Source of the DNA: an uncultured bacterium
Lineage (GTDB): Bacteria > Omnitrophota > Omnitrophia > Omnitrophales > Aquincolibacteriaceae
Assembly (NCBI GenBank): GCA_964420575.1
Contig: CAYQTU010000002.1
Coordinates: 18,534-82,533, forward strand
Length of the DNA stretch: 64,000 bases
Direction: 5' to 3'
The notes beneath the pieces were generated by a model. That model searched no databases, was not told the origin of the DNA, and saw only the letters and a list, made by a program, of their open reading frames with translations. The translations under genes were made by a program, and so were the position numbers. This document shows positions 30,063-58,428 of the stretch, one piece after another. How positions within the stretch are numbered: the stretch's first letter is position 1; the number at the start of each line of letters is the position of its first letter.

Positions 30063-30215
30063 CCGGCTTCCGCACCCGGGCATGCCGCCTTTTGGCCGCC
30101 TCTACACGCTTTTTCAGGTGTACGAACCGTTCGACTACGCTCCCTCGTCATATTTATTTTGCCTCGGGACCGTAGTCGAACGCTTCTAAGCCGGCATGCC
30201 GGGTGCGAATTCAAA
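30063..30215. repeat. long imperfect inverted repeat, candidate element boundary / recombination site
   Basis: TTCCGCACCCGGGCATGCCG...GAACCGTTCGACTACG (30063-30145) mirrored by CGTAGTCGAACG...CGGCATGCCGGGTGCGAA (30170-30212), asymmetric spacing; lies exactly where the + strand-only conjugation gene block begins. Confidence 0.5.
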
Positions 30216-30946: not shown

Positions 30947-31711
30947 ATGAATCAACCGCCCGATAGCGAAAGTACCGCAATCGACGATTCTGACGATGAG
31001 TCAAAGATTATCACCCCGATTGAGTTAACGGATCGAGACATCGCGATTTTTAAATTGATCCACGAACACCGGTATTTGGCCTACGGCCAGATCCGGGAAG
31101 CGTTCTGGAAAGAGCGTTCGGAGTCGGCTAAAGCCTGTTACCGGCGGATCGAGCGGCTCATTAATTCAGGGTATCTTTCGAAAGGTTATTCCGGCCGAAA
31201 GAATCTGAACATCTATTTCGCGACCGAAAAATCCCTGGAGATCCTGAAAACTCGAAATCTCGATTCCGATATCCGACTTTATGAGCCCACCCCGTATTTC
31301 GATCGCTCCATCGACCATGATTTGAAAGTCGCAAGCGTAAGGATTTTCTTCCGGGAGTTTGGCCTGAGTGACTGGACCCCCGAAAGGGTGTTAAGGGAAC
31401 GCGATCATTTCTTTCGCGTCCCGGACGGTGTTTTGAATATTCGCGGGAAAAAGCTCGCAATCGAGTTCGAAAATCATCTGACGAAGAGCATGAAACGCTA
31501 TCAGGAAGTTTTTGATTATTACAGCGATCACAAGATCTATCTCCTGCTTCTCATGATTATCGACGGGGATACCAAGGACTGGCTCGTTCACGGAATGCGC
31601 TATAACGCCCAGAAGATCTGGATCACAACGTATCAGGAGCTGCTGAATGACAGGGAAGACACGCTTTTTGAAAATAAACGGGCCAGTTTCAAGCTGAGCC
31701 GGCTCTTTTAG
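30947..31711 (+). CDS. replication-relaxation (Replic_Relax) family protein
   Basis: 254 aa; N-terminal wHTH-like LTDRDIAIFKLIHEHRYLAYGQIREAFW...RRIERLINSGYL and C-terminal core HDLKVASVRIFF...VPDGVLNIRGKKLAIEFENH typical of this mobile-element family; RBS AAGGAGG. Confidence 0.55.
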   Translation: MNQPPDSESTAIDDSDDESKIITPIELTDRDIAIFKLIHEHRYLAYGQIREAFWKERSESAKACYRRIERLINSGYLSKGYSGRKNLNIYFATEKSLEILKTRNLDSDIRLYEPTPYFDRSIDHDLKVASVRIFFREFGLSDWTPERVLRERDHFFRVPDGVLNIRGKKLAIEFENHLTKSMKRYQEVFDYYSDHKIYLLLLMIIDGDTKDWLVHGMRYNAQKIWITTYQELLNDREDTLFENKRASFKLSRLF

Positions 31712-31719: not shown

Positions 31720-33540
31720 ATGCAAAAACCTCCTGTTAAAAGAGAACCGTTCCTCGTCCGTATGATCGGCGGGATTTTTGTGGGGATCCCTTTCGGGATT
31801 TCGAAGAGCATTCTGAATCTTTTGACGAGCCTTAAGCGTCCATCGCTTCAAAGACTGATCCCTGGGATACTTGTCTCGTTTTCGCTGTTTTGTGTTTTAA
31901 GGCTCGGCGCTCTTTTCGATCTGCTCGACCTTCTCTTTCAAAGCAGGCGGGTCGATCCCGGCTGGGCTGCGGGCGTGAAATTCGGGTTCTTTTTCCTGCT
32001 TTATCTCGTCATCACTCTCCCCGTTTTCCTGTGCTTTGCTTATTTGAATCAGGAAGCACGATTTTTCAAACAGGATCCAGTCAAACGAGACCCGTCTCCG
32101 GAACGGATGCGGTCTTTCCGCATGAAATCCGATTATCACAAGGTTTATCTGGGGTACGGCCTGAACCAGGAGAAACCTCTTTATCTCACCAACGACCAGC
32201 GCCTGATGCACTGCGAGGTGGTGGGAAGCACCGGCACCGGAAAAACGGAGTCCGTGCTTCTTCCGATGCTCGCCCATGACATCTCGCATGGGAAAGGCGC
32301 GATCATCATTGACGGAAAAGGGGACCTGGAACTCAGGGACAAGATCCGTTACATCGTCCATAAACAGAAGCGCGAGGATGACTTTTACTTCTTCTCGTTA
32401 AGCCATCCCCAAAAATCGAATACTTATAACCCGCTTTACCGCGGGAACCCCACGGAACTGAAAGACAAGCTCGTCAACAGCATGTCCTGGAGCGAGGAGT
32501 TTTACCGGCGCATGGCGGAACAAGCTGCGCTCACGCTTCTTAACGCCATCGCTTCCGCAGGCCGGAAACCCCGGTTTCGCGAGCTTCACGGCTATTTAAC
32601 GGACCTGCAAGCCTTACAAAAACTCTCGGATGAAACCAGGAGCCCGGTCCTGAAGGAAGACATTGGAAAAATGGTCACGGGTTTCAAGGACAATCACAAG
32701 TTTCTGGCCGGGTTAATATCCGATCTTTTCCTCACCTCAAGGAGCGAGTTCTCGGACCTTCTGGATACGGATGATCCCGATATCGATCTGCTTTCGCTTT
32801 ACGAGAATAACCAAATCTGCTATTTCGCGCTCGATCTTCAGAAATACGCGGATACTTCGCGGCGTCTCGGCCGGATGATCATCCAGGATATCCGTGCCGC
32901 TTCGAGCCATATCGTGTCCCATCTTACGGCTTACCGCCGTCATTTCTTCCCGGTGTTTATCGATGACGCCTCGAGTTTTTTGGAGCTTAATTTCATCGAT
33001 TTCCTGAATAAATGCCGGGCGAGCGGATATGCCGTTACGATTCTCCATCAATCCCTGGGGGACCTTGTTTACCGGGGGATGTCCAATTTCCAACAGCAGG
33101 TGGTCGAGAACACCAATATCAAGGTCATTTTGCGCCAGGATGATCCCTTTTCCGTGGAGAAGTTCGTGAAAATCGCCGGGACGCGCCGCACCATGATCGC
33201 GACTTACCAGACGCAGGAACAAATCCTTGGAAAAGGACTGACCGGCGCGGGCTCCGTTCGCGAAGGCCAGACTTTCCGCATCGAGCCGGACCTGATCCGG
33301 GGCCTTAAACGCGGCGAGGCCGCCTTGATCTGGAAAAACCCGTCTTTGTTGACCGATCATATTAAACTCGATTTCTTCGGGTACTCGAGTTATCCGGAAG
33401 AACCGTCCTCAAAAGACAACGGGGAGAAGATTCCAAAGAAAAAACGTGCAATAAAAACTCTCACCGAAGAAAAGGAGAAAACTCATGAGGAGATCAAAAA
33501 TCCGCTTGATATCATCAATCAATTAGAAAAAGAGAAATGA
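31720..33540 (+). CDS. type IV secretion coupling protein (VirD4/TraD/TraG-like ATPase)
   Basis: N-terminal TM helices, Walker A VVGSTGTGKTES, Walker B-like region FFPVFIDDASSFL, 606 aa. Confidence 0.8.
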   Translation: MQKPPVKREPFLVRMIGGIFVGIPFGISKSILNLLTSLKRPSLQRLIPGILVSFSLFCVLRLGALFDLLDLLFQSRRVDPGWAAGVKFGFFFLLYLVITLPVFLCFAYLNQEARFFKQDPVKRDPSPERMRSFRMKSDYHKVYLGYGLNQEKPLYLTNDQRLMHCEVVGSTGTGKTESVLLPMLAHDISHGKGAIIIDGKGDLELRDKIRYIVHKQKREDDFYFFSLSHPQKSNTYNPLYRGNPTELKDKLVNSMSWSEEFYRRMAEQAALTLLNAIASAGRKPRFRELHGYLTDLQALQKLSDETRSPVLKEDIGKMVTGFKDNHKFLAGLISDLFLTSRSEFSDLLDTDDPDIDLLSLYENNQICYFALDLQKYADTSRRLGRMIIQDIRAASSHIVSHLTAYRRHFFPVFIDDASSFLELNFIDFLNKCRASGYAVTILHQSLGDLVYRGMSNFQQQVVENTNIKVILRQDDPFSVEKFVKIAGTRRTMIATYQTQEQILGKGLTGAGSVREGQTFRIEPDLIRGLKRGEAALIWKNPSLLTDHIKLDFFGYSSYPEEPSSKDNGEKIPKKKRAIKTLTEEKEKTHEEIKNPLDIINQLEKEK

Positions 33541-34241: not shown

Positions 34242-34268
34242 TTCGCGCGGTATCAACCGGAAACTTAA

Positions 34269-34312
34269 GGGAGAGGTGGTTTTAACAAAACCGCTTCTCC
34301 CTTTTTGTTTTT
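34269..34312 (+). terminator. rho-independent terminator
   Basis: GGGAGAGGTGGTTTT-AAC-AAAACCGCTTCTCCC stem then TTTTTGTTTTT. Confidence 0.6.
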
Positions 34313-35899: not shown

Positions 35900-35936
35900 C
35901 GGGCAGGGCCGTGAAAGCGTCCCTGCCTTTTTCATT
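35900..35936 (+). terminator. rho-independent terminator
   Basis: GGCAGGG-CCGTGAAAGCGT-CCCTGCC then TTTTTCATT. Confidence 0.6.
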
Positions 35937-35952
35937 AAAGGAGGGAGAGTTT

Positions 35953-36456
35953 ATGGAATATCCGAACCGCGAAACGCTTCAAGCGGAGCTTTACCAGGAC
36001 CTGAAAAAACTGCTTCTTGAATATCACTCCGGTCTTTTTGAAACGAAGAAAAAGGAGGATGAAGGGGAACTTCTTATCAAGAAACTTTATCTCGATTCGC
36101 AGGAGGGCTGCGTTCCCGACGAATTTATCGGGGAGGAACTTCTCTATGCCGTGAAAGAGAAGTTTTACGCGATTTTCAGCGTGATCCGGGACAAAGTAGC
36201 GGCGGATTATTTGCACAAGAAGAACATCCATTGCCCCCCGATTTCAATTCTCATTGAAGCCTCGTATGAGGATGTCACGTATGTCGTTGTCTTGTTTCAA
36301 AACGCAGTGATCTCGGAGTACAACGCGAAGGCCTGGAATTTCGTGTGGATTTCACCCGAGGAACTCCAAAAAGAAATGGCGGATCTCTTTTACAAGATGA
36401 GGGACCGCCTTAACCAGTATTTCGTCGAAGGCATTCGCTACGTTAAACAAAAATGA
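35953..36456 (+). CDS. hypothetical protein
   Basis: ATG 35953 with AAAGGAGGGAG RBS (ORF-track start 35911 overlaps the terminator hairpin). Confidence 0.55.
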   Translation: MEYPNRETLQAELYQDLKKLLLEYHSGLFETKKKEDEGELLIKKLYLDSQEGCVPDEFIGEELLYAVKEKFYAIFSVIRDKVAADYLHKKNIHCPPISILIEASYEDVTYVVVLFQNAVISEYNAKAWNFVWISPEELQKEMADLFYKMRDRLNQYFVEGIRYVKQK

Positions 36457-36486: not shown

Positions 36487-37593
36487 ATGAAGAAACTTTA
36501 TACAGAGTACAAAGGCATTTACGTGCTTCAGGATCCGGGGGATCTCGCGGCCCTGAAACTTGATTCGTGCGTTGTTTCAAGGAAAAGACACCAGATTTAT
36601 ATCGCTCCGCTTGAGAATCTTCAAACAAAGCAGGTGGAGGACAAGCGTAGTTCCGGGTATTCCGACCCTGTTTTCGGATTTTACGCCGCGAAACCCGAAA
36701 GATTCCTCGTGATTAATGGCGAGCGCAAGAACTCGAAATTCTGCGATCTTTGCAAGGACCGGTTGCACGGGATCACCGGCAACTGTTTTAACTATGGGGC
36801 GAAACCAGGCGGCTGTTCTTTCCGTCCGGCAAAGGCTCCGGGGAAATTCAATATCTCGCTTGCCGGATGGAAGTATTTAAAGCCCTCGCGCGTCAATCAA
36901 TACTCACCCTTTAAGAAACCTTGGAGCGCGGAATACATCCATCTCGATTCGAAAATAATTAACCGGAACAAACGCGCCCTCGCCGCGCGCAATGATTTTT
37001 GGGGCCAGCTTGAGAAGAAGAAGGCGAAATATTGCGCCCGCTGCATCTTCAAAGGCCGCTGTTACATGAACAGCATGCGGATCGCAGAGCGCTGCATGGT
37101 CACGGTCGAGAAAACCGAGAAACGCTCTTTAGGGAAAATTCATTCGAGATTCGGAAGTGTTGAGGAGTTTTTGAACCGGCTTGCTTATTGCGGGAAGGAG
37201 ATCGTCTGCCGTCCGAAGGGCGAGAAGCGGAAAACGAGGTGGGTGGTCACGAAACCCGTAGGCCGTAACAAATTCCTCATTCGAAAAAGAAGCCGGCCTT
37301 TCAAAAGAGCGATCGTTTCAAAGACGAGAATCGAAAGAAACGTGGTTCCGGAAGCGTTGCCGTCGCTTGAGCGTGAGAAGATAGCGACTTTTGCCTGGTA
37401 CTTTTTCGAAAAGTACTGCGCGAAAGATCAGGACGCGTACCGGGGATACCGGGGCCGCACGATTCGTATTCTTTCGGTCACTCCGGTTCCTAGCGGCATC
37501 GAGGTGAGCTATTACCCTTACGGCTGGGGCACTCCAAGCATCTCTCGAAAACAATTCCATTCATTTAATGAGATTGTGAGTTTCGAGCGTTGA
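36487..37593 (+). CDS. Cys-rich hypothetical protein, paralog A of tandem pair
   Basis: 368 aa; RBS AAAGGAGAAC; conserved with 37622..38680 over whole length (KFCDLCKDRLHGITGNCFN / CSFRPA / KYCARCIFKGRCYMNSMRIAERCMVT). Confidence 0.7.
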   Translation: MKKLYTEYKGIYVLQDPGDLAALKLDSCVVSRKRHQIYIAPLENLQTKQVEDKRSSGYSDPVFGFYAAKPERFLVINGERKNSKFCDLCKDRLHGITGNCFNYGAKPGGCSFRPAKAPGKFNISLAGWKYLKPSRVNQYSPFKKPWSAEYIHLDSKIINRNKRALAARNDFWGQLEKKKAKYCARCIFKGRCYMNSMRIAERCMVTVEKTEKRSLGKIHSRFGSVEEFLNRLAYCGKEIVCRPKGEKRKTRWVVTKPVGRNKFLIRKRSRPFKRAIVSKTRIERNVVPEALPSLEREKIATFAWYFFEKYCAKDQDAYRGYRGRTIRILSVTPVPSGIEVSYYPYGWGTPSISRKQFHSFNEIVSFER

Positions 37594-37621: not shown

Positions 37622-38680
37622 ATGGAAAAAGTTTATACGGAGATCGATGGGACTTATGTTTTTCCGAAGCCCCGCGACCTTAGATCCCTCAAGCCTGATT
37701 CGTGCGCGGTACGGATCATGAAGGATAAACCCTGCGTGATTCCATTGAAAAATCTTCAGGGGAAGGAGGTCGAGAATGGGAACCGGCACGGCTATTCTTG
37801 CGTGTGGGGATATCACGACGATAAGAGCGATCCTTACATCGTCATGAACGGCGAGAAAAAGAAACCGAAGTTCTGCGATTTCTGTAAGGACCGTTTGAGC
37901 GGGATTACCGGCAATTGCCTGAACCGGGCCGTTAAACCCTCAGGATGTTCGTTCCAGCCGGCGGATGATTTGAAGCCTTTTGAGATCAATTTGACGGGCT
38001 GGAAGAAACTCCGTGCGATCGATCTCAACGAACGGACTCCTTTTTTAAAACCGTACATGGGCGGTGTTTCTTTTGATCCGAAACTCATCAAACAAAACCG
38101 AAAAATCCGGATGATCGCGAGGCACCTCCCGGAATATCAGGAACGGAAGCTCGAGAAATACTGTTCCCGCTGTATTTTTCAGGGAACTTGTTATCTCTAT
38201 AGCACTAAAGTGGCCGAGCACTGCATGGTCACCGAGGAAAAGACCATAAAAGGGTGTTTGGTGCAGATTCGGCGGCGGTTTGGGAACGTCGATGAATACC
38301 TCGGAATGCTTGCTTACTGCGGCGGCAAATTGACGTACAAACCCGAGGGGCAACCCCAAGAATCGGAATGGCGGGTCTCGCAGCCTTTCAGCAAGAAACA
38401 GTATGAGATCGTCGGGTCTTATTCCGGGTATAGCGGTTCGAAAGCACCAAGAAAACTCGTCGAGGATTCCGTAACGCCCGTTCGTGTTCCGACACGGAAT
38501 CGTGAAAAGATCGCGGCCCTCGCCTGGTATTACCTGGATCACTATCCTTTTCACCGGCTCTGGATTTCGCTTAAACAGGGGGGTATTGAAGCGACGCATC
38601 AAGTGCACGGCCACAACCGTTTCTTCCGCGCTGAGGTTTTTACGTCCTTCAACGAGATCCATTACTTCTTCTGTCGTTAG
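37622..38680 (+). CDS. Cys-rich hypothetical protein, paralog B of tandem pair
   Basis: 352 aa; RBS AAAGGAGAACC; KFCDFCKDRLSGITGNCLN / CSFQPA / KYCSRCIFQGTCYLYSTKVAEHCMVT. Confidence 0.7.
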   Translation: MEKVYTEIDGTYVFPKPRDLRSLKPDSCAVRIMKDKPCVIPLKNLQGKEVENGNRHGYSCVWGYHDDKSDPYIVMNGEKKKPKFCDFCKDRLSGITGNCLNRAVKPSGCSFQPADDLKPFEINLTGWKKLRAIDLNERTPFLKPYMGGVSFDPKLIKQNRKIRMIARHLPEYQERKLEKYCSRCIFQGTCYLYSTKVAEHCMVTEEKTIKGCLVQIRRRFGNVDEYLGMLAYCGGKLTYKPEGQPQESEWRVSQPFSKKQYEIVGSYSGYSGSKAPRKLVEDSVTPVRVPTRNREKIAALAWYYLDHYPFHRLWISLKQGGIEATHQVHGHNRFFRAEVFTSFNEIHYFFCR

Positions 38681-38733: not shown

Positions 38734-39780
38734 ATGAATACCGTCGATTTAGTGAAAATCCTGAAACAATGTTTCCAGGCGAATGTCACGCCTCTTATCT
38801 GGGGTCAGCACGGGATCGGGAAAAGCCAGATCGTGCAGGCCCTCGCTTCTGAACTGAAATACGAATGCGTGGATCTCCGGCTTGGCCAGATGGAGGTTGG
38901 AGACCTGATCGGTCTTCCCTCAAAGGAGGAGGGAAGAACCGTATGGCTCAAGCCCTCCTGGTTCCCGAAAGAAGGAACGGTTGGGATCCTATTCCTCGAT
39001 GAGCTGAACCGTGCGCGGCTTGACGTGTTGCAAGCGATCTTTCAGCTTGTCTTGGAGAGGAGACTCCACACCCATCGTCTTCCGGACGGCTGGAAAATCG
39101 TGTGCGCTTCCAATCCTTCCGGGAGCGATTATTTCGTCAATGAACTCGATCCGGCGCTTCTTGATCGGTTTCTTCACATTCAGTTCCGGCCGGAACCCAA
39201 CGAATGGATCGGCTGGGGCAAGGACACCGGCAAAATCCGGGGAGAGATCCTCGATTTAATCGCGCGGTATACGCATCTTCTCGGAAGCCCCTCGAACGAG
39301 CTTCCTCTCGAAGTGCTTCCATCCCCGAGGTCCTGGGAGATGCTTTCCCGGATGTTGAACGGTCTTGAGGACCGGCTCTGGCTGCAATGCTCGATGGGTC
39401 TTGTGGGGAAGGAGGCGGCCATCGCGTTTATCGAGAGCCTAAAAAAGGATCAGGAGATCCCGATCAAAGCCGAGGAAATACTTTCGGATTACGCGAAAGT
39501 GAAAGCACGCGTTAAAAAATACTCGTCCGGGAAGAAGGCGCGTCTCGATCTTCTCAGGATCACGGGCGACGAGTTTTTAAGGATCCTCGCCAAGGAAGGG
39601 AAAGCAAAAGCGTTAAGCGCGAAAGAGAAAACGAATCTCGTGGATTTTCTCGATGAACTTCCCGTCGATCTCGCGTTTGCGCTCGTCAAGGAACTCGTCA
39701 AGATCCCGGAAGTGAACACGCTTCTTCATTCCCAGGAGAAATTCACGGAGAAGCTCGCGCAGGCCGCGCAAGCCTCTTAA
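38734..39780 (+). CDS. MoxR-like AAA+ ATPase (AAA_5)
   Basis: Walker A LIWGQHGIGKSQ, Walker B ILFLDELNRA, sensor region IVCASNP; 348 aa. Confidence 0.8.
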   Translation: MNTVDLVKILKQCFQANVTPLIWGQHGIGKSQIVQALASELKYECVDLRLGQMEVGDLIGLPSKEEGRTVWLKPSWFPKEGTVGILFLDELNRARLDVLQAIFQLVLERRLHTHRLPDGWKIVCASNPSGSDYFVNELDPALLDRFLHIQFRPEPNEWIGWGKDTGKIRGEILDLIARYTHLLGSPSNELPLEVLPSPRSWEMLSRMLNGLEDRLWLQCSMGLVGKEAAIAFIESLKKDQEIPIKAEEILSDYAKVKARVKKYSSGKKARLDLLRITGDEFLRILAKEGKAKALSAKEKTNLVDFLDELPVDLAFALVKELVKIPEVNTLLHSQEKFTEKLAQAAQAS

Positions 39781-39800
39781 ACGTACTTTTCAGAAATATA

Positions 39801-39830
39801 GGCGGGGATTTTTTTCCCCGCCTTTTTTCT
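39801..39830 (+). terminator. rho-independent terminator
   Basis: GGCGGGGA-TTTTTTT-CCCCGCC followed by TTTTTTCT. Confidence 0.65.
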
Positions 39831-39853
39831 GTCTACCCAAGGAGGAAAACCGC

Positions 39854-40237
39854 ATGGGTTATTACACGGATTTTACGGGCTCCATTGATTTACCGGGCAT
39901 TTCCGAAAAAGACACGCAGCATCTTGAAAACATCATTCGTCGTCATTTCCGGAACGCGGAAAGCGGAATCCGTCTTGAGAAAAACAAAGACGGCTGTTCC
40001 CTTGAGTTTTTTGCCAACTGGAAAAACTATAACGAGGAGTTCCAGCGGTTCGTGATGGCGGTTGTCCGGGCGTTTCCCAAAGCCGCAGCCGGCCGGATTG
40101 ATGCCTGCGGAGAGGATAGGGATGACAACTGGGCGCTCGAAGTCGGAGGTGGCAAAGTGATTTATATCAGCTACGAACAAGTCGCGAAAGATCGAACCGT
40201 CTATTTTGACGCAAAAGGAGGAAGACATCATGATTGA
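39854..40237 (+). CDS. hypothetical protein
   Basis: RBS CAAGGAGGAAAAC; 127 aa; between MoxR ATPase and VWA genes. Confidence 0.55.
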   Translation: MGYYTDFTGSIDLPGISEKDTQHLENIIRRHFRNAESGIRLEKNKDGCSLEFFANWKNYNEEFQRFVMAVVRAFPKAAAGRIDACGEDRDDNWALEVGGGKVIYISYEQVAKDRTVYFDAKGGRHHD

Positions 40238-41315
40238 GGAAATGGTCGTTTCACTGGTACAGACAAAACCGTTTTACGCGCATTTCATCCAGCAGATGAA
40301 CCGGATCGAGACGGAGAAGATCCCGACGCTTGGCGTGAATATAAAAGAGCGCATCAACCTCTATTTCAATCCGAAGTTTCTGGACCATCTCCGATTTGAC
40401 GAACGGGTCGCGTGTCTGGAGCACGAGGTACTGCATCTTTTGCATCTCCATCTTTTCCGGGGCGATGGCAAGAACCACCGGGTTTTCAATATCGCCTGCG
40501 ATCTTGCCATTAACACCTATATCGAGAACCTTCCGAAGATCGCGCTTTTCCCGAAACTCTTCGGGTTCGAGGAAGGCCAAACCGCGGAATGGTATTACAA
40601 GAAATTAATCGAGAACTCGGAGAAGCTCGCAGCAAAGATCGCGAAGGCGGGAGAATCCTTCCTTGACGATCACGAACTTTGGAAAGACTCGGAAGGAGAT
40701 CCCGAGTATCAGCAGGAATTTTTAAGGCGCGCCATCAAGATCTCGCTTGATGAAACGCAGGACTACGGTTCTTTGCCTGGGAACATGAGCGAGGAACTGA
40801 AGGAATTCCTGAAAGGCTCCCGCGTGAATTGGAAGAGCGTGCTTGAGCGATTTTTGATTCACGCCACGCTTGTCCGTTCGATTTTCTCGAGGAAACGTCC
40901 GAACCGGAGGTTCGAGGAGTTCCCGGGCGAAAAAGTGGAACAGAAACTCAAGCTCCTGATCGGGCTTGATACGAGCGGGAGCGTAAGCGACTGTGACCTC
41001 GCGCTTTTCTTCGCCGAGATCGAGAAAATCAAAGCGCTCGGCATGGACATCACGGTCGCTGAGTGCGACACAGAGATCGGAAACGTTTACCGCTACAAAA
41101 CACGGCCGAAAGCCGTATCGGGCCGCGGCGGCACGAGTTTCCGGCCGGTCTTTGATTTGGCCGAAAAACTCCGGCCCGATGCCGTTCTTTATCTCACGGA
41201 TGGAGAAGGCGCTTATCCGGAACGTTCGAAGTATTCGACGCTCTGGTGTCTTACTCCGGACGGGAATTTCTCGGGCTCATTCGGCAAAGTCCTGAAACTT
41301 CCGCAGAAAAAATAA
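40230..41315 (+). CDS. putative metallopeptidase-like N-domain + VWA (MIDAS) domain protein (DUF2201-type MoxR partner)
   Basis: ATG 40230 with AAAGGAGG RBS. N-terminal HExxH-like LEHEVLHLLHLHLF, C-terminal MIDAS motif LIGLDTSGSVSD plus conserved GGTSF...YLTDGEG. Confidence 0.65.
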   Translation: MIEEMVVSLVQTKPFYAHFIQQMNRIETEKIPTLGVNIKERINLYFNPKFLDHLRFDERVACLEHEVLHLLHLHLFRGDGKNHRVFNIACDLAINTYIENLPKIALFPKLFGFEEGQTAEWYYKKLIENSEKLAAKIAKAGESFLDDHELWKDSEGDPEYQQEFLRRAIKISLDETQDYGSLPGNMSEELKEFLKGSRVNWKSVLERFLIHATLVRSIFSRKRPNRRFEEFPGEKVEQKLKLLIGLDTSGSVSDCDLALFFAEIEKIKALGMDITVAECDTEIGNVYRYKTRPKAVSGRGGTSFRPVFDLAEKLRPDAVLYLTDGEGAYPERSKYSTLWCLTPDGNFSGSFGKVLKLPQKK

Positions 41316-42828: not shown

Positions 42829-43290
42829 ATGGGATTTGACATTGTTGGGCACGATCCAAAAACAGAAAAAGGCGAATATTTCAGGAATAACGTCTGGTGG
42901 TGGCATCCGTTATGGGGGTTTGTATCCAAACATTGCCGGGACATTCTGACCCCTCAAGAGATCGAAGCCGGATCCTTTAATAACGGCACGCTTATTCCCG
43001 CAAGAAAAGCGCGTTTGATCGGGCTTCGCCTCAGGTTCCTGCTCGATCAAAAAGAAGTGAAAGAGTTCGAGGAGGAATACAGAAAACACCTCGATTCACT
43101 GCCGGATGAGCCCTGCGATCTTTGCGCGGGCACGGGGAAACGTTACGACGAATTCGTGAAAGGGGATTGCAACGGCTGTGGGGGCAAAGGGAAGAAACGT
43201 CCCTGGGTCACGAACTATCCGTTTAAGGAAGAAAACGTAAAAGATTTCGCGGATTTCGCGATCGAATCCGGAGGGTTCAGGATTTGTTAA
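42829..43290 (+). CDS. hypothetical protein with DnaJ-type CxxCxGxG zinc-finger repeats
   Basis: CDLCAGTGKRYDEFVKGDCNGCGGKGKK; RBS AAAGGAGG. Confidence 0.55.
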   Translation: MGFDIVGHDPKTEKGEYFRNNVWWWHPLWGFVSKHCRDILTPQEIEAGSFNNGTLIPARKARLIGLRLRFLLDQKEVKEFEEEYRKHLDSLPDEPCDLCAGTGKRYDEFVKGDCNGCGGKGKKRPWVTNYPFKEENVKDFADFAIESGGFRIC

Positions 43291-43390: not shown

Positions 43391-44011
43391 ATGGGATACA
43401 CACATTATTGGTATCGCAAGGACAGGGAAATAGAAGGGAAGATATTTGAGCGGATCGTCTCGGATTTCAGGAAATTACTGCCGGCGATTGAGAAACTCGG
43501 GATCGCACTTGCCGGCGGCAATGGATCAGGAGATCCCGTGATTGACGGCACTCTCGTTTGTTTCAACGGTTTTGAGAAGTGCGGCCATCCGGCGTCTTAC
43601 GAGCTTGGGATCGCATGGCCGTCTCAGAACGCCAAGGGTGTTGCGAATCCTTGGCGGGAAGATGTCGAAAGCGGGCATTGGTTTGGCGGCGCGACGATCG
43701 ATAAACGTACGTGTTCCGGGGATTGCAGCCACGAAACCTGCTGGTTTCCGCGGATTCTTCCGGAGGACCGTCACACCCGGTTCGATTCACACCCCACCGA
43801 AGAAGGCGGCAGCGGCTGGCACTTCAGTTTCTGCAAGACAGCCTACAAACCATATGACCTCGCGGTGACCGCGTTTCTTGTGATTGCGAAACATCATCTA
43901 AAAGAGAAACTCTCGGTCCAGTCGGACGGCGAGACCCAGCATTGGGCGGATGCCCGGATCCTGTGCGAACAGGTTCTCAGCTACGGCATCGGCTTCGAAC
44001 TGGACCGTTAA
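43391..44011 (+). CDS. hypothetical Cys/His-rich protein
   Basis: RBS TAGGAGGAAAAATC; 206 aa; CSGDCSHETCWF. Confidence 0.55.
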   Translation: MGYTHYWYRKDREIEGKIFERIVSDFRKLLPAIEKLGIALAGGNGSGDPVIDGTLVCFNGFEKCGHPASYELGIAWPSQNAKGVANPWREDVESGHWFGGATIDKRTCSGDCSHETCWFPRILPEDRHTRFDSHPTEEGGSGWHFSFCKTAYKPYDLAVTAFLVIAKHHLKEKLSVQSDGETQHWADARILCEQVLSYGIGFELDR

Positions 44012-44086
44012 AGTCAACCCATCCCTTAAACGAGCGGAAGGCGCTTTAGGGCGTCTTTCGCTTTTTCATTTGAAAGGAGCTTCGTA

Positions 44087-44473: not shown

Positions 44474-45544
44474 ATGAAACTCGAAGAATTGGTCAAGACA
44501 CTCGAATCCGAAAAACTGAGGAAGTTCGATTATCTGGTGGACTCCCGCGATCTTTCGGCCGTTTCACAAGTCGGAGGTTCGCACGGGATTTCGTTCCGGG
44601 ATGCCGGAAAATTCCGGGAGTTATCCGAAACCACTCAATTCAACCTGCTGCGCGGCGCTCACCGTCAGATCGCGGATAAACTGGAGATCCCGGAAAAGTA
44701 TTACGATCGCCTTCTCCTGCATCCCGACGCCTGGGCCTTCAATGTGAACTGGTGGCTTGAGCGGGAGCCGAAGCATTTTCTGATGCGGACTTTTCAGGAG
44801 AAAAATGACGGTATGGGAATCATCCGGGCGCTTCTTTCGAATAGATACCGGGTGATCGATCACATGGACGCGCTTTTTACCGCTCTTGAGGAACTCCGGA
44901 AGTTTTCGGGGGTCCGCGTCGAATCCTGCGATCTTACCGAAGACCGGATGTATTTGCGGGTGAGTCATCCCGGGATTCGTGCCGAGATAAAACCGGGCGA
45001 TGAAATACTTGCCGGGATGATCCTCGCCAATTCGGAAACCGGGATCGGCAAACTCTATGTGAAACCCCGGCTTCTTCGTCTGGTCTGCAAAAACGGATTG
45101 GTGACGGATCTCGGGGTGGAGCAGGTTCATCTCGGGAAAAAACTTTCCGAGGAGTTTCTTTACTCGGATGAAACCCAGCGTCTCGAAAACGAGCTTCTTT
45201 TTCGGAAGATCAAGGACATGGTCCGCTCTATTTTCTCGCCGGACACGTTTCAGAAACTCGTCGATCTTCTTCGCGAGTCCGCTGAAGTGCGCGTTCTCGA
45301 ACCTGAGAAAGCGGTCAAGAATATCGTCACCCGTTATGTCCTTCGGGAAACTCAAAAAGAAGAGATCCTCCGGAGTTTCATTGACGGCGGCGATTCCTCC
45401 AAGTACGGCCTGATCCAGGCCGTGACGCACGCTGCTCACGCGGAAACTGATCCAAATGAAGCGTCTCGAATTGAGGCGATTGGCGGTGAGATTCTCGAGA
45501 TGGACCCGGCTCGTTTCGAGGAGTTAGTTACGATTAAAGCCTAA
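44474..45544 (+). CDS. DUF932-family protein (conjugative-element/phage-plasmid-associated)
   Basis: 356 aa; RBS TAAAGGAGGATAT; pattern HRQIADKLEIPEKYYDRLL...PDAWAFNVNWWL...LSNRYRVIDHMD...GMILANSETGIGKLYVKPRLLRLVCKNG resembles DUF932; untested by search. Confidence 0.5.
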   Translation: MKLEELVKTLESEKLRKFDYLVDSRDLSAVSQVGGSHGISFRDAGKFRELSETTQFNLLRGAHRQIADKLEIPEKYYDRLLLHPDAWAFNVNWWLEREPKHFLMRTFQEKNDGMGIIRALLSNRYRVIDHMDALFTALEELRKFSGVRVESCDLTEDRMYLRVSHPGIRAEIKPGDEILAGMILANSETGIGKLYVKPRLLRLVCKNGLVTDLGVEQVHLGKKLSEEFLYSDETQRLENELLFRKIKDMVRSIFSPDTFQKLVDLLRESAEVRVLEPEKAVKNIVTRYVLRETQKEEILRSFIDGGDSSKYGLIQAVTHAAHAETDPNEASRIEAIGGEILEMDPARFEELVTIKA

Positions 45545-46620: not shown

Positions 46621-46623
46621 GAA

Positions 46624-46658
46624 ACGGGCAGCCCCTTTCCGGGTTGCCCGTTTTTTTT
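46624..46658 (+). terminator. rho-independent terminator
   Basis: ACGGGCAGCC-loop-GGTTGCCCGT 10-bp stem then TTTTTTTT. Confidence 0.7.
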
Positions 46659-46697
46659 CCTCATTCCAGTTCTTCGCACGGCGGAAAGGACACCGCC

Positions 46698-47306
46698 GTG
46701 TCTACAAAGAACGAAAACGAAGAACAGAATCAAAACCTTGCCGAGGAGGCTGGGGAAGAAAGAGAAGAACGAACCAAATCAAGAACAAGGGCGGTTGATT
46801 TCATGCGTGTGGAAGATACGCAAGGCCAAACTCTCACTCACTTTGAACTGAAAGTGAAAGAAAAGATCGCCTGTGTCCCGAGTCCTTTTGAAGAACTCGC
46901 CAGGAAGGAGGATGAGGAAAACCGGTCCGAAGAGGTTCGAAACACACTGAGGGACTTAGTGGAGAAGGCTTTGACCGAGAAACAGAAAGCCTGGTTCCAT
47001 CTTGCGTACGTGGAAGAACTCCCGGACTTTGAGATCGCGAAACGCCTCGGCGTTACGAAACGCCGGGTTTCGTCTCTTAGAGCCGAGGCCTTAAACGCCT
47101 TCAAGCGCGTTTATGAGAAAGAACGGCTCAAGCAATATCTGGACACCTGCGCTCTCACGGAAAAACAGAGGCTTGTGATCGAACTCCGCTTTGAGAAGCG
47201 GCTCTCCTATAAAGAGATCGCGGAACGGTTGGGAGTGACGGTTTGGGCCGTGGATGACGTTTTAAAACGGATCCGGAAAAATTTTTTCTCTCGGGAAAAT
47301 TCGTGA
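46698..47306 (+). CDS. transcriptional regulator with two tandem sigma-70 region-4-like HTH domains
   Basis: LTEKQKAWFHLAYVEELPDFEIAKRLGVTKRRVSSLRAEALNAFKRV and LTEKQRLVIELRFEKRLSYKEIAERLGVTVWAVDDVLKRIRKNF; no region-2 detected. Start taken as GTG 46698 (alternative ATG 46803) because the ORF-track start 46644 lies inside the upstream terminator. Confidence 0.6.
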   Translation: MSTKNENEEQNQNLAEEAGEEREERTKSRTRAVDFMRVEDTQGQTLTHFELKVKEKIACVPSPFEELARKEDEENRSEEVRNTLRDLVEKALTEKQKAWFHLAYVEELPDFEIAKRLGVTKRRVSSLRAEALNAFKRVYEKERLKQYLDTCALTEKQRLVIELRFEKRLSYKEIAERLGVTVWAVDDVLKRIRKNFFSRENS

Positions 47307-47365: not shown

Positions 47366-47461
47366 CCACCCATTCAAATTTATTTGTGAGCGTCGCGATT
47401 CGCGGCTACCCCAGGGGGTTTAAGGCAAATCCCCCCTCACCTTATGAGGAGGGTAAAGAAC

Positions 47462-47779
47462 GTGAATGGAAAAAGTATTGGTCCAAAAATTCAAAAACTG
47501 GCCCTGTTCGGATTGCTCCTGTTGATCCGGGCACAGGTCGCGTACGCGGAAGCGACCTCGGAATCGGATTTAGGATCGTTTCTCGAGGGTGTCGGTGATT
47601 TTCTGATCCGAACGGTCGGTCCCGCCGTGCTCGTGATCGGGGTCGGAGTGGCCGGGGTCGGGATGGCGCTTGGCGATGAGCGCGCCATGCAGCGCGGCGC
47701 GCTTGCCGCGGGCGGCGGCGCTCTCATTTTGCTTTCCCGCGCGATTCTCGATTTCATCACGCACATCGCGCATTTTTAG
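47462..47779 (+). CDS. VirB2/TrbC-like conjugative pilin precursor
   Basis: GTG 47462 8 nt after GAGGAGGG; signal peptide ...LLLLIRAQVAYA|EA, two hydrophobic helices (TVGPAVLVIGVGVAGVGMALG; AAGGGALILLSRAILDFI). Confidence 0.6.
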   Translation: MNGKSIGPKIQKLALFGLLLLIRAQVAYAEATSESDLGSFLEGVGDFLIRTVGPAVLVIGVGVAGVGMALGDERAMQRGALAAGGGALILLSRAILDFITHIAHF

Positions 47780-47790
47780 GAGGTTTTGAA

Positions 47791-48069
47791 GTGAAAACGC
47801 TGAAAGGTTTCACGAAAATTCAAAGCAAGAACAAGATCCTCGGGCTCGAGTTCCTTGATCTTTTGATCCTGCTTCTTGTTTATCTGGTGGTGTTCGTTTT
47901 CTCCGCGAACCTTCTCCTCAACCTCGCGCTCGTGGCGGGAGCCTATTTTATTTTACGGCTCTACAAAAAAGGGAAGGCCCCGCACTGGGCGGGTTCTGTG
48001 ATCCGGTTCTTGCTAAAGCCCCGGAAATACGTTTTATGCCGGGAAAAAGAAGAGGAGCTTCCCCGATGA
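47791..48069 (+). CDS. VirB3/TrbD-like small membrane protein
   Basis: GTG after GGAGG; 92 aa with one or two TM helices; position between pilin and VirB4-like ATPase with 4-nt overlap. Confidence 0.45.
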   Translation: MKTLKGFTKIQSKNKILGLEFLDLLILLLVYLVVFVFSANLLLNLALVAGAYFILRLYKKGKAPHWAGSVIRFLLKPRKYVLCREKEEELPR

Positions 48070-50579
48070 AAACGAGTCTTCTCACTAAAACTCGGGACCT
48101 CATCCAGCGGGAGAATAGTCCCTCGTTTCTGCGTCAGATCGATCTTTATGACATTGAGGACGGAATTCTGCTTGGGGTAAGCGGCAGCATGGCTCGCGGG
48201 TTCTGGTTTGGCGGAAAGGATGTACTGCTTTCAAGCGAGGCCGAGATCGAGGATTTCGAAAGAAAGATGCGAAAGTTCTTAAACGCGCTCCCGGAAGGAG
48301 CAACTCTCCATTTCGTGGTCCGATCCGGGACTGGGGATGAAGACTCACTCAAGCAATACGCCTCTTCGATTCAAAGCGGAGTTTCGCTTGGAAAAACCTT
48401 TCTTGACGCGAAACTCGGCGCGTACCGGAAACATCCTCTTTTGAAAAAGGAAGTTTTTTTGTTTGTGGTGATCCATCCGAAGACGAGAAAACCGCGTTCC
48501 TCGTTTCTTCCGGATCTGTCCGTCGCATTCGGGAAAAAAGCGCACCGCCTCTCCGAACTTGAATACTCCGCATCGAGAGAAACGCTTCACGCGCTTACGA
48601 CCGAGATCGAGGAAAGTTTCCGTACGCTCGGTTTCGATATGCGCGCGCTTTCCGACCCAGAACTCACCAAGTACTTGTATGAGTTCCTGAACCCGTTTTA
48701 TTCGAAGGAATTCGTTCCCTTCGAGAAAGCCAATTTTAAAGCGAGCGACTCTGACCCGGCGAGCCTCAGAAGCCGTCTTTCGCTTCATCCTCCGCGTCTT
48801 GGGTACGAGTATTTCTATCTCGACCACTATTTTTACCGGGCATTGAATCTCGTCCGTTTGCCTGACTCCACGACTCTTAAATCCATGAAAGATTTCGAGC
48901 GCTCGCTCGGTAACGATTATTTCCTTACGGTCACTTTCGAGGTTCCCGATCAGGACCGCGAGAAATCGGAGATCCGGCGGTACGGGAACTTCGCGAGAGC
49001 GAAAACCTTTTACTCCCGAGCGAAGGATCATGACGCGCTCGCGCAAGCCGGGGAAACGGACGAGCTTTTGACGGAGATTGCCCAAAGCGCGGACAAGCTC
49101 TTTTACGTTTCGTTTTCCGTGATGGTGCGTGCCGAGACCTTGGGAGAAAGCGTCCGGTCTTCCAGGCAGGCGCTTCGTGCTTTCCGGGATCTCGGGGACG
49201 CTCAGGGGATCGAGGACCACATGAATCACGACCGTTTATTTCTTTCGTTTTTGCCGCTTCAGGGCGATGAAAACCCGCTCGCGTTCATAGTTCGTTCCGA
49301 AGTCCTAACGCATCTTCTTCCGCTTCAGGCGAGCTGGCGAGGGACGGACCGGATCGGGCTGCTTCTCAAGACTTACCGTAACGAACCGCTCCGCCTCGAT
49401 CTTTTCGATTCGAAGCTTCAGGCGAAACACAGCGTAATGCTCGGCACGACCGGGAGCGGAAAGAGTTTTTTTACGAACCACTTACTCCTTCATTTCCTGA
49501 TTGAGTCTCTGGATCATGAAGTGATCGTGATCGACCTGGGCGGCAGTTACCGGAAACTGGCCGGAGTTCTGGGCGGGTCTTATCTCGAAGTAGAATGCTC
49601 GGAAAAATACGCGTTAAACCCTTTTCCTGCCAAGGCAGTTCTTTTCCCGGACGGAGGAGCGGACGCGACTTTCATTCAGTTCCTGAAGGAACTGCTCAGG
49701 CAGATGATCGCCCCGAGACGGGAATGGTCCTCAAGCGAGAAGATGATCCTTGAACGGGCGATTCTGGAAGTCTACCGGAATATTGGTGCCCAGGATGCCC
49801 CGCTTCTCGGGGACATCGAAAAATGCCTTCGCAATTTCCAGATCGGGGATGAGGAGGACCGCAAGAAAGCGTATCAGTTCGCGAAAGAACTTACGCTTTT
49901 CACGGAAGGCGAGTACGGGAAGATCCTTAACCGATGCGGGGTCTTTGATTTTAATTCGCGGTTCACGGTTTTCGATCTCCGGAAGATTTCGCAATACCCC
50001 GAGCTTCAGGAGATCCTGCTGCTCATTATTCCGTTCGCGCTTCGCCGTAAATTCGAGAACTTGAATCTAAAGAAGATCCTCGTTTTGGACGAATGCTGGC
50101 AGCTTCTGAAAGACAGTCAGGGGACGGATCTTGTCGAGACCTTCTACAGGACCGCCCGGAAAATGAACGCCGCGGTTTGCTCGATCTCTCAAAACCCAGC
50201 GGATTTTCTCGAGGCGTCCATCGCGAGCGTCATGATCAATAACTCTCCGGTTAAATACATCCTTCGGCTCAAGGAAGGCCACGGGAAACTCTCGCTTTTC
50301 GGGCTGAACGAAAACGAGATCAAAGCGGTCGGGGAGCTTGAGGTGAGACCGGGCCGGTACTCGGAAGTGTTTATCAAATTCGACGATCGAAGCGTCATTG
50401 CCCGTCTTGAGCCAAGCGCTCTCGAGTATTGGGCCGCCACGACGGACGCTCTGGATTTGGCAGAGGAAACCCGGCTCCGGAAAGAACATCCGGATTATCC
50501 GCCGATCAAGATCCTCGAAACGCTTTCCCGGGAGTTTCCAAACGGCGTTAAGAAATCAAACGAGGCGGATCATGTCTGA
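48066..50579 (+). CDS. VirB4/TrbE/CagE-like type IV secretion ATPase
   Basis: ATG 48066 after GAGGAG; Walker A MLGTTGSGKSFF, Walker B ILVLDECWQLL, ~840 aa, conserved C-terminal region. Confidence 0.9.
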   Translation: MKTSLLTKTRDLIQRENSPSFLRQIDLYDIEDGILLGVSGSMARGFWFGGKDVLLSSEAEIEDFERKMRKFLNALPEGATLHFVVRSGTGDEDSLKQYASSIQSGVSLGKTFLDAKLGAYRKHPLLKKEVFLFVVIHPKTRKPRSSFLPDLSVAFGKKAHRLSELEYSASRETLHALTTEIEESFRTLGFDMRALSDPELTKYLYEFLNPFYSKEFVPFEKANFKASDSDPASLRSRLSLHPPRLGYEYFYLDHYFYRALNLVRLPDSTTLKSMKDFERSLGNDYFLTVTFEVPDQDREKSEIRRYGNFARAKTFYSRAKDHDALAQAGETDELLTEIAQSADKLFYVSFSVMVRAETLGESVRSSRQALRAFRDLGDAQGIEDHMNHDRLFLSFLPLQGDENPLAFIVRSEVLTHLLPLQASWRGTDRIGLLLKTYRNEPLRLDLFDSKLQAKHSVMLGTTGSGKSFFTNHLLLHFLIESLDHEVIVIDLGGSYRKLAGVLGGSYLEVECSEKYALNPFPAKAVLFPDGGADATFIQFLKELLRQMIAPRREWSSSEKMILERAILEVYRNIGAQDAPLLGDIEKCLRNFQIGDEEDRKKAYQFAKELTLFTEGEYGKILNRCGVFDFNSRFTVFDLRKISQYPELQEILLLIIPFALRRKFENLNLKKILVLDECWQLLKDSQGTDLVETFYRTARKMNAAVCSISQNPADFLEASIASVMINNSPVKYILRLKEGHGKLSLFGLNENEIKAVGELEVRPGRYSEVFIKFDDRSVIARLEPSALEYWAATTDALDLAEETRLRKEHPDYPPIKILETLSREFPNGVKKSNEADHV

Positions 50580-50699
50580 GGCGGTAGCGGAACGGCACAA
50601 ACGATGGATCGGAAGAATTCGCCGGAGACTGTTTCTCCGGTTCTTTTTGGGGGTTCTGATAATTAGCCTTGGATTTTTACTTTTATTTGGGAGGTAATT
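50571..50699 (+). CDS. hypothetical small membrane protein (42 aa)
   Basis: ATG 50571 overlapping VirB4 end; RRRLFLRFFLGVLIISLGFLLLFG. Confidence 0.3.
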
Positions 50700-50700
50700 T

Positions 50701-51468
50701 ATGAGGAAATCATCAAGGATTCTATTTCTGGCGCTCTTTTTACTGAGCGCCGCGATTCCGAGATCTTACGCGCTCATCGTGAACGATCCAATTCACACCG
50801 CGGTCAATCAGCTTCAAAACTCGATCCTTCAAACCGAGTGGGCGAAACAGATTGCGCTCGCGATCGAGCATCTCAACCAGCTCACGAATCAAACTATGGA
50901 GATCTTCCGGTTTCATTCGGGGCTGGATGAGATTTTAAATTCCATCATCGGCGATCCTTTACGGAATCTTCTCGGGCAGGGCACCACGAATTTGCAGAAC
51001 GCTTTCAGAGATCTCGGCCTTACCGGTTCTCAAATCCAGATCGTGCAGGGAGCGACCGGTCCAGAAGACATCCGTTTCGCTTTGGAGGATCTCACCGGGA
51101 AAATCCCGGAAACGGACGCGAAACCCTACCTCGCGTTTGACGAGATGCAGGTGGTGGACGCCTTCGATCTCGCCCGGCAGATCCGGCAGGCGGGAGACAC
51201 GACGCGCACTGCCGCAACCCAGATCGCGGATGAGGCCGTGACCGCAAGCCCGAAAGGGGCTGTGCGCCTCCAGGCGCAGGCCATGTCCCAGCTCATGGTG
51301 CTCAGTCAACAGAACCAGGAAGCCATGGCGAAACTGCTTGAACTTGAAGCCACAAAAATCTCTCAGGTCACGCGCGAAGAAAAACGCGTGGAAACGGAAC
51401 GCCTCAAATTCATGGAAGACGCCGGCGATTACGCGGACGGTATTGCCCGGGCGTTTATAGGAGCGTAA
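50701..51468 (+). CDS. secreted alpha-helical protein, possible VirB5/TrbJ-like
   Basis: Signal peptide MRKSSRILFLALFLLSAAIPRSYA; helical/coiled content; position after VirB4. Confidence 0.35.
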   Translation: MRKSSRILFLALFLLSAAIPRSYALIVNDPIHTAVNQLQNSILQTEWAKQIALAIEHLNQLTNQTMEIFRFHSGLDEILNSIIGDPLRNLLGQGTTNLQNAFRDLGLTGSQIQIVQGATGPEDIRFALEDLTGKIPETDAKPYLAFDEMQVVDAFDLARQIRQAGDTTRTAATQIADEAVTASPKGAVRLQAQAMSQLMVLSQQNQEAMAKLLELEATKISQVTREEKRVETERLKFMEDAGDYADGIARAFIGA

Positions 51469-51475
51469 TTATTTT

Positions 51476-52980: not shown

Positions 52981-52997
52981 AAATCTTCGTTTTTTTT

Positions 52998-58409: not shown

Positions 58410-58428
58410 AGAGGAGGAGCCAAAAGAA

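Follow-up and report, generated by a model that had tools for sequence, protein, structure and literature searches.

A three-gene module in an Omnitrophota element

We analyzed a stretch of 64,000 nucleotides from an uncultured Omnitrophota bacterium (GenBank assembly GCA_964420575.1, contig CAYQTU010000002.1; the whole stretch is referred to here as the window, with positions counted from its first base), which carries a module of three genes on the forward strand of a putative conjugative-type element. The first gene (38734 to 39780) encodes a 348-residue AAA+ ATPase of the MoxR type (AAA_5) that is a homolog of phage N4 gp24, and the second (39854 to 40237) encodes a 127-residue protein for which a double beta-alpha-beta-beta (ferredoxin-like) fold is predicted. 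The third (40230 to 41315) encodes a 361-residue homolog of N4 gp25 with an N-terminal DUF2201_N zincin domain, marked by the motif HEVLHLLHLH, and a C-terminal DUF2201 von Willebrand factor A (VWA) domain, marked by the motif DTSGS of a metal ion-dependent adhesion site (MIDAS). An earlier note, made from the nucleotide sequence, had described three open reading frames (ORFs) of this kind here, and all three are present on the forward strand with their motifs intact. They are real genes and not chance ORFs, because orthologs of 67 to 96% identity occur in eight other loci and because the ratio of nonsynonymous to synonymous divergence (dN/dS) is 0.03 to 0.07. Every protein of the module is predicted to be soluble and without a signal peptide.

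The longest ORF of the zincin-VWA gene begins at a TTG at 40206 (40206 to 41315), which is merely the first possible start codon. The ATG at 40230 sits 7 nucleotides behind an AAGGAGG sequence that is part of the last codons (KGGRHHD) of the 127-residue protein gene, and it overlaps the stop codon of that gene as ATGATTGA. This ATG is probably the true start, because of the AAGGAGG spacing, because the ATGATTGA junction is identical across five related loci, and because gene callers use the equivalent ATG as the start on related contigs. The zincin-VWA gene is most likely translationally coupled to the gene for the 127-residue protein, which has its own AAGGAGG ribosome-binding site; in the related loci, a gene for a protein of about 130 residues always overlaps the start of the VWA gene.

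The zincin-VWA gene lies 450 bp downstream of the ATPase gene. A terminator scan found a GC-rich hairpin, AGGCGGGGA...TCCCCGCCT, followed by a T-run (39800 to 39832, forward strand), between the ATPase gene and the gene for the 127-residue protein. A hairpin with a T-run occurs at the same place in the related loci L004, L005, L007, and L008 and is absent from L006; its stems and loops differ in sequence among the four loci, yet they still pair. We infer that the hairpin is probably an intrinsic terminator or attenuator that limits read-through, so that the two downstream genes are expressed less than the ATPase; this conserved hairpin would thereby probably set a high ratio of ATPase to VWA protein.

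Domains and catalytic motifs of the ATPase and the zincin-VWA protein

To evaluate the domain assignments, we used the profiles that the earlier note had proposed as a check (AAA_5, PF13203, and PF09967), all of which matched above their curated Pfam thresholds. The ATPase, with the Walker A motif GQHGIGKSQ and the Walker B motif LFLDELN, matches AAA_5 (E value, 2.9e-10; 40.7 bits versus a cutoff of 22), whereas its score against AAA_3, the profile of MoxR proper, is below the cutoff (22.7 bits versus 27). These scores place the predicted ATPase within the broad MoxR/AAA_5 class and outside MoxR proper. The AAA+ core comprises approximately residues 1 to 160; the remaining 190 or so residues form a C-terminal region specific to the family. 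In an alignment of homologs, the conserved positions are Walker A (GIGKS), Walker B (LDELN), the sensor-1 residue N127, R145, and R199. The solved ATPases nearest by sequence are the AAA domains of Midasin, NorQ, and CbbQ, and plasmid homologs of the ATPase carry the NCBI name "MoxR family ATPase."

The zincin-VWA protein matches DUF2201_N (PF13203; E value, 1.4e-24; 87.6 bits versus a cutoff of 23.2) over residues 16 to 236 and DUF2201 (PF09967; E value, 2.8e-19; 69.9 bits versus a cutoff of 26.4) over residues 251 to 365. The Pfam and PHROG ranges given for this protein count from the 369-residue ORF that begins at TTG 40206, and the catalytic residues count from ATG 40230. The proposed reading of this protein as a VWA and metallopeptidase-like protein is thus supported by the profiles. 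In comparison with phage and plasmid homologs of 26 to 37% identity, H65, E66, and H69 of the HExxH motif are invariant, as are H74, D91, and N95, and so is the complete MIDAS (DxSxS...T...D) formed by D247, S249, S251, T302, and D324. In an alignment of 47 sequences, H65, H69, H74, and D91 are invariant, and E66, the MIDAS aspartate, and the two MIDAS serines are nearly so. A structural model of the N-terminal domain (mean predicted local distance difference test score, 86.5) supports a zincin fold, since its best structural matches are only zincins with small catalytic cores. Because structural matches are confined to these small-core zincins, no close relative of the N-terminal domain has been solved; sequence and profile searches with the zincin-VWA protein likewise gave no match in the PDB.

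Relatives of the pair in phages and plasmids

Both proteins have full-length matches among phage protein families. The ATPase matches phrog_1297 ("ATPase") over residues 2 to 341 of 348 (E value, 2e-66), and the VWA protein matches phrog_1314 over residues 2 to 368 of 369 (E value, 8.9e-70). The label "HNH endonuclease" that phrog_1314 carries is a misannotation, as Pfam detects no HNH domain in the protein. This label has spread into many RefSeq and GenBank phage records, for example, NC_008720 (N4 gp25), NC_048638, and OR602862. In BLASTP comparisons, the ATPase matches N4 gp24 (E value, 1e-21) and the VWA protein matches N4 gp25 (E value, 4e-26). By these matches, the pair is assigned to the DUF2201, or N4 gp24-gp25, family, which is not new; it is already known but functionally uncharacterized. 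The earlier note had missed this identity, and the architecture of the pair had already been noted in jumbo phages (PMC7824862).

The family is found across a wide range of mobile DNA. A tblastn search with the VWA protein recovered 428 phage records, 253 of them with at least 80% query coverage, together with 98 from plasmids (16 conjugative, 27 mobilizable). N4-like phages (all groups sampled), rV5-like phages, and jumbo phages are among the sources of the phage records, and the N4 gp24/gp25-type pair is among the more widespread conserved gene pairs of phages that have no assigned function. In Moorella phage MTATph1, Pseudomonas phage ZC03, a Sphaerotilus plasmid, and Synechocystis pSYSA, the ATPase gene is directly upstream of the VWA gene with none between. 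N4 gp24 and gp25 lie in the middle-gene region, beside genes for dCTP deaminase, rIIA/B, a helicase, and DNA polymerase. The nearest relatives outside Omnitrophota (43 to 48% identity) are on the phage-like contigs L016 and L017, where the pair neighbors genes for DNA ligase, a RuvB-like ATPase, a 5'-3' exonuclease, Prim-Pol, and ClpS.

A MoxR ATPase encoded with a VWA protein that bears a peptidase could also be anti-phage or anti-invader defense cargo, namely, a MoxR-vWA conflict system that releases its peptidase effector upon infection, like the VMAP/iSTAND ternary systems. MoxR-vWA systems with vWA-fused peptidases have been predicted to act in defense (PMC7159879, PMC12839542). Moreover, Sir2, DUF262, and toxin-antitoxin genes occur close to the pair in the Sphaerotilus and Synechocystis plasmids, mobile elements often carry defense cargo, and restriction-modification cassettes flank relatives of the element studied here. 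However, PADLOC gave no hit for the VWA or 127-residue protein and only an insignificant one for the ATPase (E value, 0.007), the ATPase scored below the cutoff of the bpMoxR profile (20 bits versus 27), and Pfam revealed no VMAP, inactive STAND, FtsH, or beta-propeller domain in the 127-residue protein or its neighbors. The pair is also a core gene set of lytic N4-like phages and is invariant in its own element family, outside the variable cargo. Thus, the anti-phage link raised in the earlier note did not hold up; with PADLOC empty and the ternary-system partner absent, we rejected a defense system as the principal reading and regard it as very unlikely.

An invariant block under purifying selection

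To assess how the module has evolved, we compared it with related Omnitrophota loci. Identity to the window across these loci is 77 to 96% for the ATPase, 67 to 93% for the VWA protein, 62 to 89% for VirB4, 49 to 86% for the type IV coupling protein (T4CP), 41 to 85% for the Replic_Relax protein, 39 to 81% for the Cys-rich paralogs described below, and 42 to 73% for the 127-residue protein. Between the window and L004, the closest comparison, synonymous divergence (dS) is alike for all genes (0.65 to 0.9), and dN/dS is 0.029 for the ATPase, 0.069 for both the VWA protein and VirB4, and 0.10 to 0.155 for all others. Purifying selection in the element is thus strongest on the ATPase/VWA pair; the paralogs evolve at three to five times its rate. 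Recent exchange between elements was considered as a cause of this conservation and was rejected, since the dS of the pair equals that of its neighbors; dS is saturated in the other comparisons, so this test holds for the window and L004 only.

The related Omnitrophota loci that cover the surrounding block are L004 to L008, L012/L013, and L014/L015. The order orf35911, paralog(s), ATPase, 127-residue protein (or a protein of similar length), and VWA protein is kept in eight related loci, while the neighbors come and go. The conservation of the gene neighborhood that the earlier note had put forward as a check is thus found in all eight of the related elements examined that cover the block, Cys-rich paralogs included. 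The block is headed by orf35911 (35911 to 36456, forward strand; 181 residues; no family match), which is present immediately before the paralog gene(s) in each related locus. Paralogs A (36487 to 37593; 368 residues; pI 10.0; 12 Cys) and B (37622 to 38680; 352 residues) are encoded on the forward strand and are 39% identical (E value, 3e-90). In the more divergent elements (L012 and L014), there is one paralog, not two, and one or two extra small genes follow the ATPase gene.

The paralogs are found only in Omnitrophota and matched nothing in Pfam or, by a profile of the paralogs, in the PDB. Because they are basic (pI 9.3 to 10) and have eight invariant Cys in two CxxC...C...C clusters, their sequences suggest zinc-binding proteins that may bind nucleic acid. 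They are lineage-specific additions that may be a client or a partner of the ATPase/VWA pair. In every element of this family, a Cys-rich paralog gene immediately precedes the ATPase gene. This arrangement raises the possibility that the pair is a maturation chaperone that folds, loads with metal, or processes the Cys-rich basic proteins or parts of the relaxosome or type IV secretion system (T4SS), similar to NorQD, CoxDE, CbbQO, or the MoxR/VWA pair of Acidianus two-tailed virus, which drives tail assembly. Among solved stand-alone ATPases, NorQ and CbbQ are the closest, several further neighbors are rich in Cys and His, and strong purifying selection would suit an internal housekeeping role. 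However, the paralogs are confined to Omnitrophota and evolve faster than the pair, which is widespread without them, and the known metal-insertion pairs do not feature an intact protease domain. Collectively, these points make a maturation role somewhat unlikely.

The 127-residue protein has no match in Pfam, NCBIfam, PADLOC, or PHROGs and shows a weak resemblance to the ferredoxin-like domains of YubB and Api92, without sequence support. Its close homologs make up a narrow family of 22 clusters, with identity of 56% or more throughout. An exhaustive profile search recovered 59 distant relatives with the signature MGYxTxFxG...WKNY...GE(x)3D(x)W, and the two contexts of distant relatives that were examined are phage-like arrays of small genes without DUF2201. 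The gene is an addition specific to this Omnitrophota lineage, and its product may be a regulator or adaptor. The three genes had been proposed as a triad. Within this lineage they are indeed conserved together; elsewhere only the ATPase-VWA pair recurs, usually with the two genes adjacent or overlapping. A general three-gene unit was accordingly rejected outside this lineage, as the pairs of phages and plasmids lack the middle gene and relatives of the 127-residue protein occur without DUF2201 in the two contexts examined.

A further small gene of the window, orf43391 (43391 to 44011; 206 residues, rich in Cys and His), is found 2 kb downstream of the VWA gene. In L014/L015, its homolog (L014 positions 12331 to 12945; 69% identical) lies between the ATPase gene and the gene for the 127-residue protein, where it accounts for the extra small gene of L014, so that orf43391 shifts position among loci but stays nearby. 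Both orf43391 and the 127-residue protein begin with MGY; kinship between them was rejected, as BLASTP shows no similarity.

The conjugative-type element and its cargo

The predicted genes of the window indicate that the module sits in a conjugative-type element with a T4SS, between the Replic_Relax and coupling-protein genes and the VirB2-B10 genes; the proposal that it is encoded by an element is borne out. The genes listed next are on the forward strand. The gene for the Replic_Relax protein (30947 to 31711; Pfam, 31.1 bits versus a cutoff of 25.3) is followed by that for the T4CP (31720 to 33540; Pfam TrwB_AAD_bind, TraG-D_C, and T4SS-DNA_transf). On the other side of the module, Pfam identifies a regulator with two sigma-70 region-4 domains (46644 to 47306) and VirB2/TrbC, VirB3-like, VirB4/TraC, VirB6/TrbL, VirB9/CagX, and VirB10/TrbI proteins (47444 to 55147). 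No classical MOB relaxase was found among the proteins of the window, only the Replic_Relax protein. The closest relatives of the VWA protein (78 to 92% identity) are in metagenome-assembled genomes of Candidatus Omnitrophota.

A mobile element is favored over a fixed chromosomal locus, although it is not proven. Mobility is favored because the restriction-modification flanks of L004 and L006 differ and because the internal cargo varies (RadC, UmuD/UmuC-like proteins, a PC4-like single-stranded DNA [ssDNA]-binding protein, DUF932, and a trio of tyrosine recombinases). It is not proven because no integrase was found; the scanned ORFs contain no integrase domain, and neither a tRNA gene nor element ends were found within the window. 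A fixed chromosomal locus would account for the position next to giant genes that the window, L012, and L014 share and for the LacI gene that lies upstream of the element in both the window and L014, where L006 has an Eco57I-like/XhoI cassette instead. The differing flanks and varying cargo speak against this candidate.

The proximity of the secretion genes raises the possibility that the pair is a particle-assembly chaperone and protease that here acts on the conjugative pilus or T4SS. For group 2.2 jumbo phages, a role in structural-protein processing has been proposed for the same architecture (PMC7824862), and the module is 6 kb upstream of the pilin and T4SS genes. However, a conjugative element produces no virion, the soluble module proteins without signal peptides contrast with pilin and T4SS parts, which are in the envelope, and in N4 and L016/L017 the pair is among DNA-metabolism rather than structural genes. 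In addition, L012 retains the module without T4SS genes within 7 kb downstream. We therefore consider an assembly role highly improbable. The L012/L013 element retains the Replic_Relax, T4CP, paralog, ATPase, 131-residue protein, and VWA genes, and two-component regulator genes occupy the downstream region; it is either a mobilizable or decayed derivative or an element whose T4SS is encoded elsewhere.

The cargo of the element bears on a further role, that of an anti-defense effector. Here, a protease machine entering with mobile DNA would degrade or inactivate host immune proteins, in the manner of ArdC but with its own AAA+ unfoldase. The pair is located in a same-strand run of small, variable cargo genes (RadC, UmuDC-like, DUF932, ssDNA-binding protein) typical of leading, or establishment, regions. 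It is also found beside a cytosine methyltransferase gene on a conjugative plasmid, and relatives of the 127-residue protein occur in early-gene-like phage arrays. On the other hand, known anti-defense genes are typically patchy and fast evolving, whereas the pair is a slowly evolving core gene set with the lowest dN/dS in the element and is core in N4-like phages. Nor does the pair have the ssDNA-binding N-terminal domain of ArdC, and it is not mentioned in a survey of leading regions (PMC11541004). On balance, an anti-defense role is possible but not likely.

Among the variable cargo, the DUF932 gene (44474 to 45544, forward strand; DUF932 E value, 3.1e-07; phrog_1362 E value, 1.9e-54) is present in L006 and absent from L004, L005, and L009. 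It also lies about 3 kb downstream of the VWA gene on the phage-like contig L016 (13837 to 14610), and it may be a loosely linked accessory gene of the ATPase/VWA pair. In the contig of L006 (L023, 16593 to 19506), three tandem tyrosine-recombinase genes lie on the opposite strand between the orf43391 homolog and DUF932 and are probably a nested mobile element. Several small Cys-rich proteins are encoded in the cargo region, one of which (42829 to 43290; 153 residues) has a DnaJ-type CxxCxGxG zinc-finger motif (weak match; E value, 0.008).

Strong terminator-like hairpins (stems of 14 to 17 bp with T-runs) at 34267 to 34303, 44032 to 44063, and 46621 to 46654 partition the cargo region, giving separate transcription units. 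Terminator-like sites numbered 36 in the scan versus 21 ± 5.6 expected, and sigma-70-like promoters were fewer than expected (2 versus 8.6). A 21-nucleotide inverted repeat (30124 to 30186; 90% complementary, with a 21-nucleotide spacer) lies in a 0.9-kb noncoding stretch upstream of the Replic_Relax gene and is a candidate origin of transfer (oriT) or regulatory site.

Further features lie toward the ends of the window. A single ORF of 5005 residues (10989 to 26006, forward strand) is a giant gene typical of Omnitrophota, in which such genes have been described (bioRxiv 10.1101/2023.11.21.568195). Giant genes likewise stand immediately upstream of L012 and L014; their products are an RHS/YD-shell protein that contains a Peptidase_S8 domain and a protein exceeding 3365 residues. 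After the VirB10 gene, genes for an outer-membrane efflux protein, a family-2 glycosyltransferase, and an HlyD-like membrane-fusion protein (55441 to 59496) are either the right-hand flank or further cargo. A gene for a YhcG/DUF1016 PDDEXK nuclease is located near the right end (60188 to 61513), and the GC content is markedly lower at the ends of the window (0.35 to 0.40 at 1 to 4000 and 62001 to 64000, versus about 0.50).

Proposed function of the pair

The earlier note had left function as maturation, defense, or anti-defense, a suggestion that we judged too open to test. The reading that we favor, with a confidence somewhat short of even, is that the pair acts on a conserved cytoplasmic protein, of either the host or the element, when mobile DNA establishes itself or replicates. 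The VWA domain would capture the client protein via the MIDAS metal site, and an ATPase ring docked on the VWA protein would use ATP to remodel or partly unfold it. The fused zincin domain would then cleave the client, making the pair in effect a two-component AAA+ protease. Remodeling coupled to cleavage is the simplest mechanism because MoxR-VWA pairs remodel clients and because the VWA protein here bears an intact zincin domain; complex formation, proteolysis, timing, and the identity of the target are all points that we infer. A conserved cytoplasmic client is preferred because conjugative elements, plasmids, and phages share the pair, because its neighbors in phages act in DNA metabolism, and because it evolves the slowest within this element; a virion component or a fast-evolving immune protein is an unlikely client.

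Several points weigh against action on a conserved cytoplasmic protein during establishment or replication. The strong conservation could equally mean that the client is a protein of the element. The label of an establishment (leading) region draws on the type of cargo only, as integrase, element ends, and a mapped oriT are lacking. The ATPase and VWA genes are 4.5 kb apart in one conjugative plasmid, and the pair also occurs next to Sir2 and DUF262 genes in a chromosomal or island setting, which would be compatible with defense. Finally, N4 gp24 and gp25 are listed as "Unknown" (PMC2784036), and a search of the literature on DUF2201, DUF932, von Willebrand proteins of Schitoviridae, and MoxR in anti-defense found no functional study.

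A more specific and far more speculative version, to which we give little credence, is that the pair is a general "DNA-entry protease" of mobile elements, an AAA+-assisted zincin that would clear mobile DNA, as it enters or replicates, of proteins attached to it covalently or tightly. It could act on the relaxase-DNA adduct after conjugation, on host nucleoid proteins, or on ssDNA-binding proteins. Wss1 and Spartan cooperate with the AAA+ ATPase Cdc48/p97, and by analogy the pair would be a counterpart, in bacteria and mobile elements, of this eukaryotic DNA-protein cross-link repair, with the Cys-rich zinc proteins as its DNA-targeting subunits in Omnitrophota. If true, this would explain why conjugative elements and phage DNA-metabolism regions share the pair, why it is strongly conserved, and why its catalytic core resembles that of ArdC and Spartan.

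Irrespective of the client, the context of the pair is informative for the function of the whole family, as a conjugative element from a distant phylum carries the pair as a fixed component. The findings argue against virion assembly, the only published functional proposal, because the pair is fixed and most constrained in a conjugative element and has DNA-metabolism neighbors in phages, and they narrow the search to a function common to all incoming mobile DNA. The window also documents a family of Omnitrophota T4SS conjugative elements with a defined invariant core.

Comparison with known systems

MoxR-vWA ternary conflict systems have as their third component VMAP, iSTAND, FtsH, or a beta-propeller (Kaur et al. 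2020, PMC7159879). They share with the window a MoxR ATPase, a vWA protein with a fused effector (occasionally a metallopeptidase), and a third gene. The third gene of the window, however, encodes a ferredoxin-like protein of 127 residues in place of these components. The peptidase of the window protein is N-terminal with apparently intact catalytic motifs, whereas the fused effector peptidases of described ternary systems are mostly inactive, and the window-type pair, unlike these systems, belongs to the core genes of lytic phages.

The MoxR-VWA pairs CbbQO, NorQD, and Rea1/Midasin remodel a client bound at the MIDAS (Snider and Houry 2006, summarised in PMC7159879). CbbQ/CbbO, NorQ/NorD, and Rea1, which include the closest solved ATPases, follow the same logic as that proposed here, with a MIDAS domain for client binding and an AAA+ ring for remodeling. 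However, partners of the CbbO, NorD, and Rea1 type are large VWA proteins without a peptidase, whereas the VWA protein of the window carries an intact zincin domain. CbbQO and NorQD are also encoded beside their metalloenzyme clients, whereas nothing around the window pair relates to Rubisco, NOR, or ribosome assembly; genes for Rubisco, NOR, and CODH are absent from the window, which sets the pair apart from the metalloenzyme activases CbbQO, NorQD, and CoxDE.

ArdC is a leading-region protein of conjugative plasmids. ArdC (R388) and the Spartan, Wss1, and SprT proteins have a small zincin core with HExxH and a nearby His, as does the window protein, although this likeness is confined to about 100 residues and there is no sequence-level relationship. 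ArdC has an N-terminal, ssDNA-binding ArdC-N domain and a C-terminal zincin domain, and ArdC-N is not detectable in the window protein. By its predicted domains and context, then, the window pair is neither a ternary conflict system, a metalloenzyme activase pair, nor ArdC.

The likeness to phage pairs is closer. Iyer et al. (2021, PMC7824862) described a pair from group 2.2 jumbo phages, made up of a MoxR AAA+ ATPase and a vWA protein that bears a metallopeptidase at its N terminus, and proposed virion assembly or structural-protein processing as its role. As described there in words, this pair has the same domain architecture as the window pair; the proposed virion-assembly role cannot apply to a conjugative element. 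N4 gp24 and gp25 (phrog_1297 and phrog_1314) have the same two-protein architecture, gene order, and strand as the window pair, and conserved HExxH and MIDAS motifs and a location outside the structural genes are family features. Identity between the N4 and window proteins is only 28 to 31%, and the window pair is unlike that of N4 in being part of a T4SS element of Omnitrophota, in its intervening gene for the 127-residue protein, in the Cys-rich paralogs upstream, and in the hairpin after the ATPase gene.

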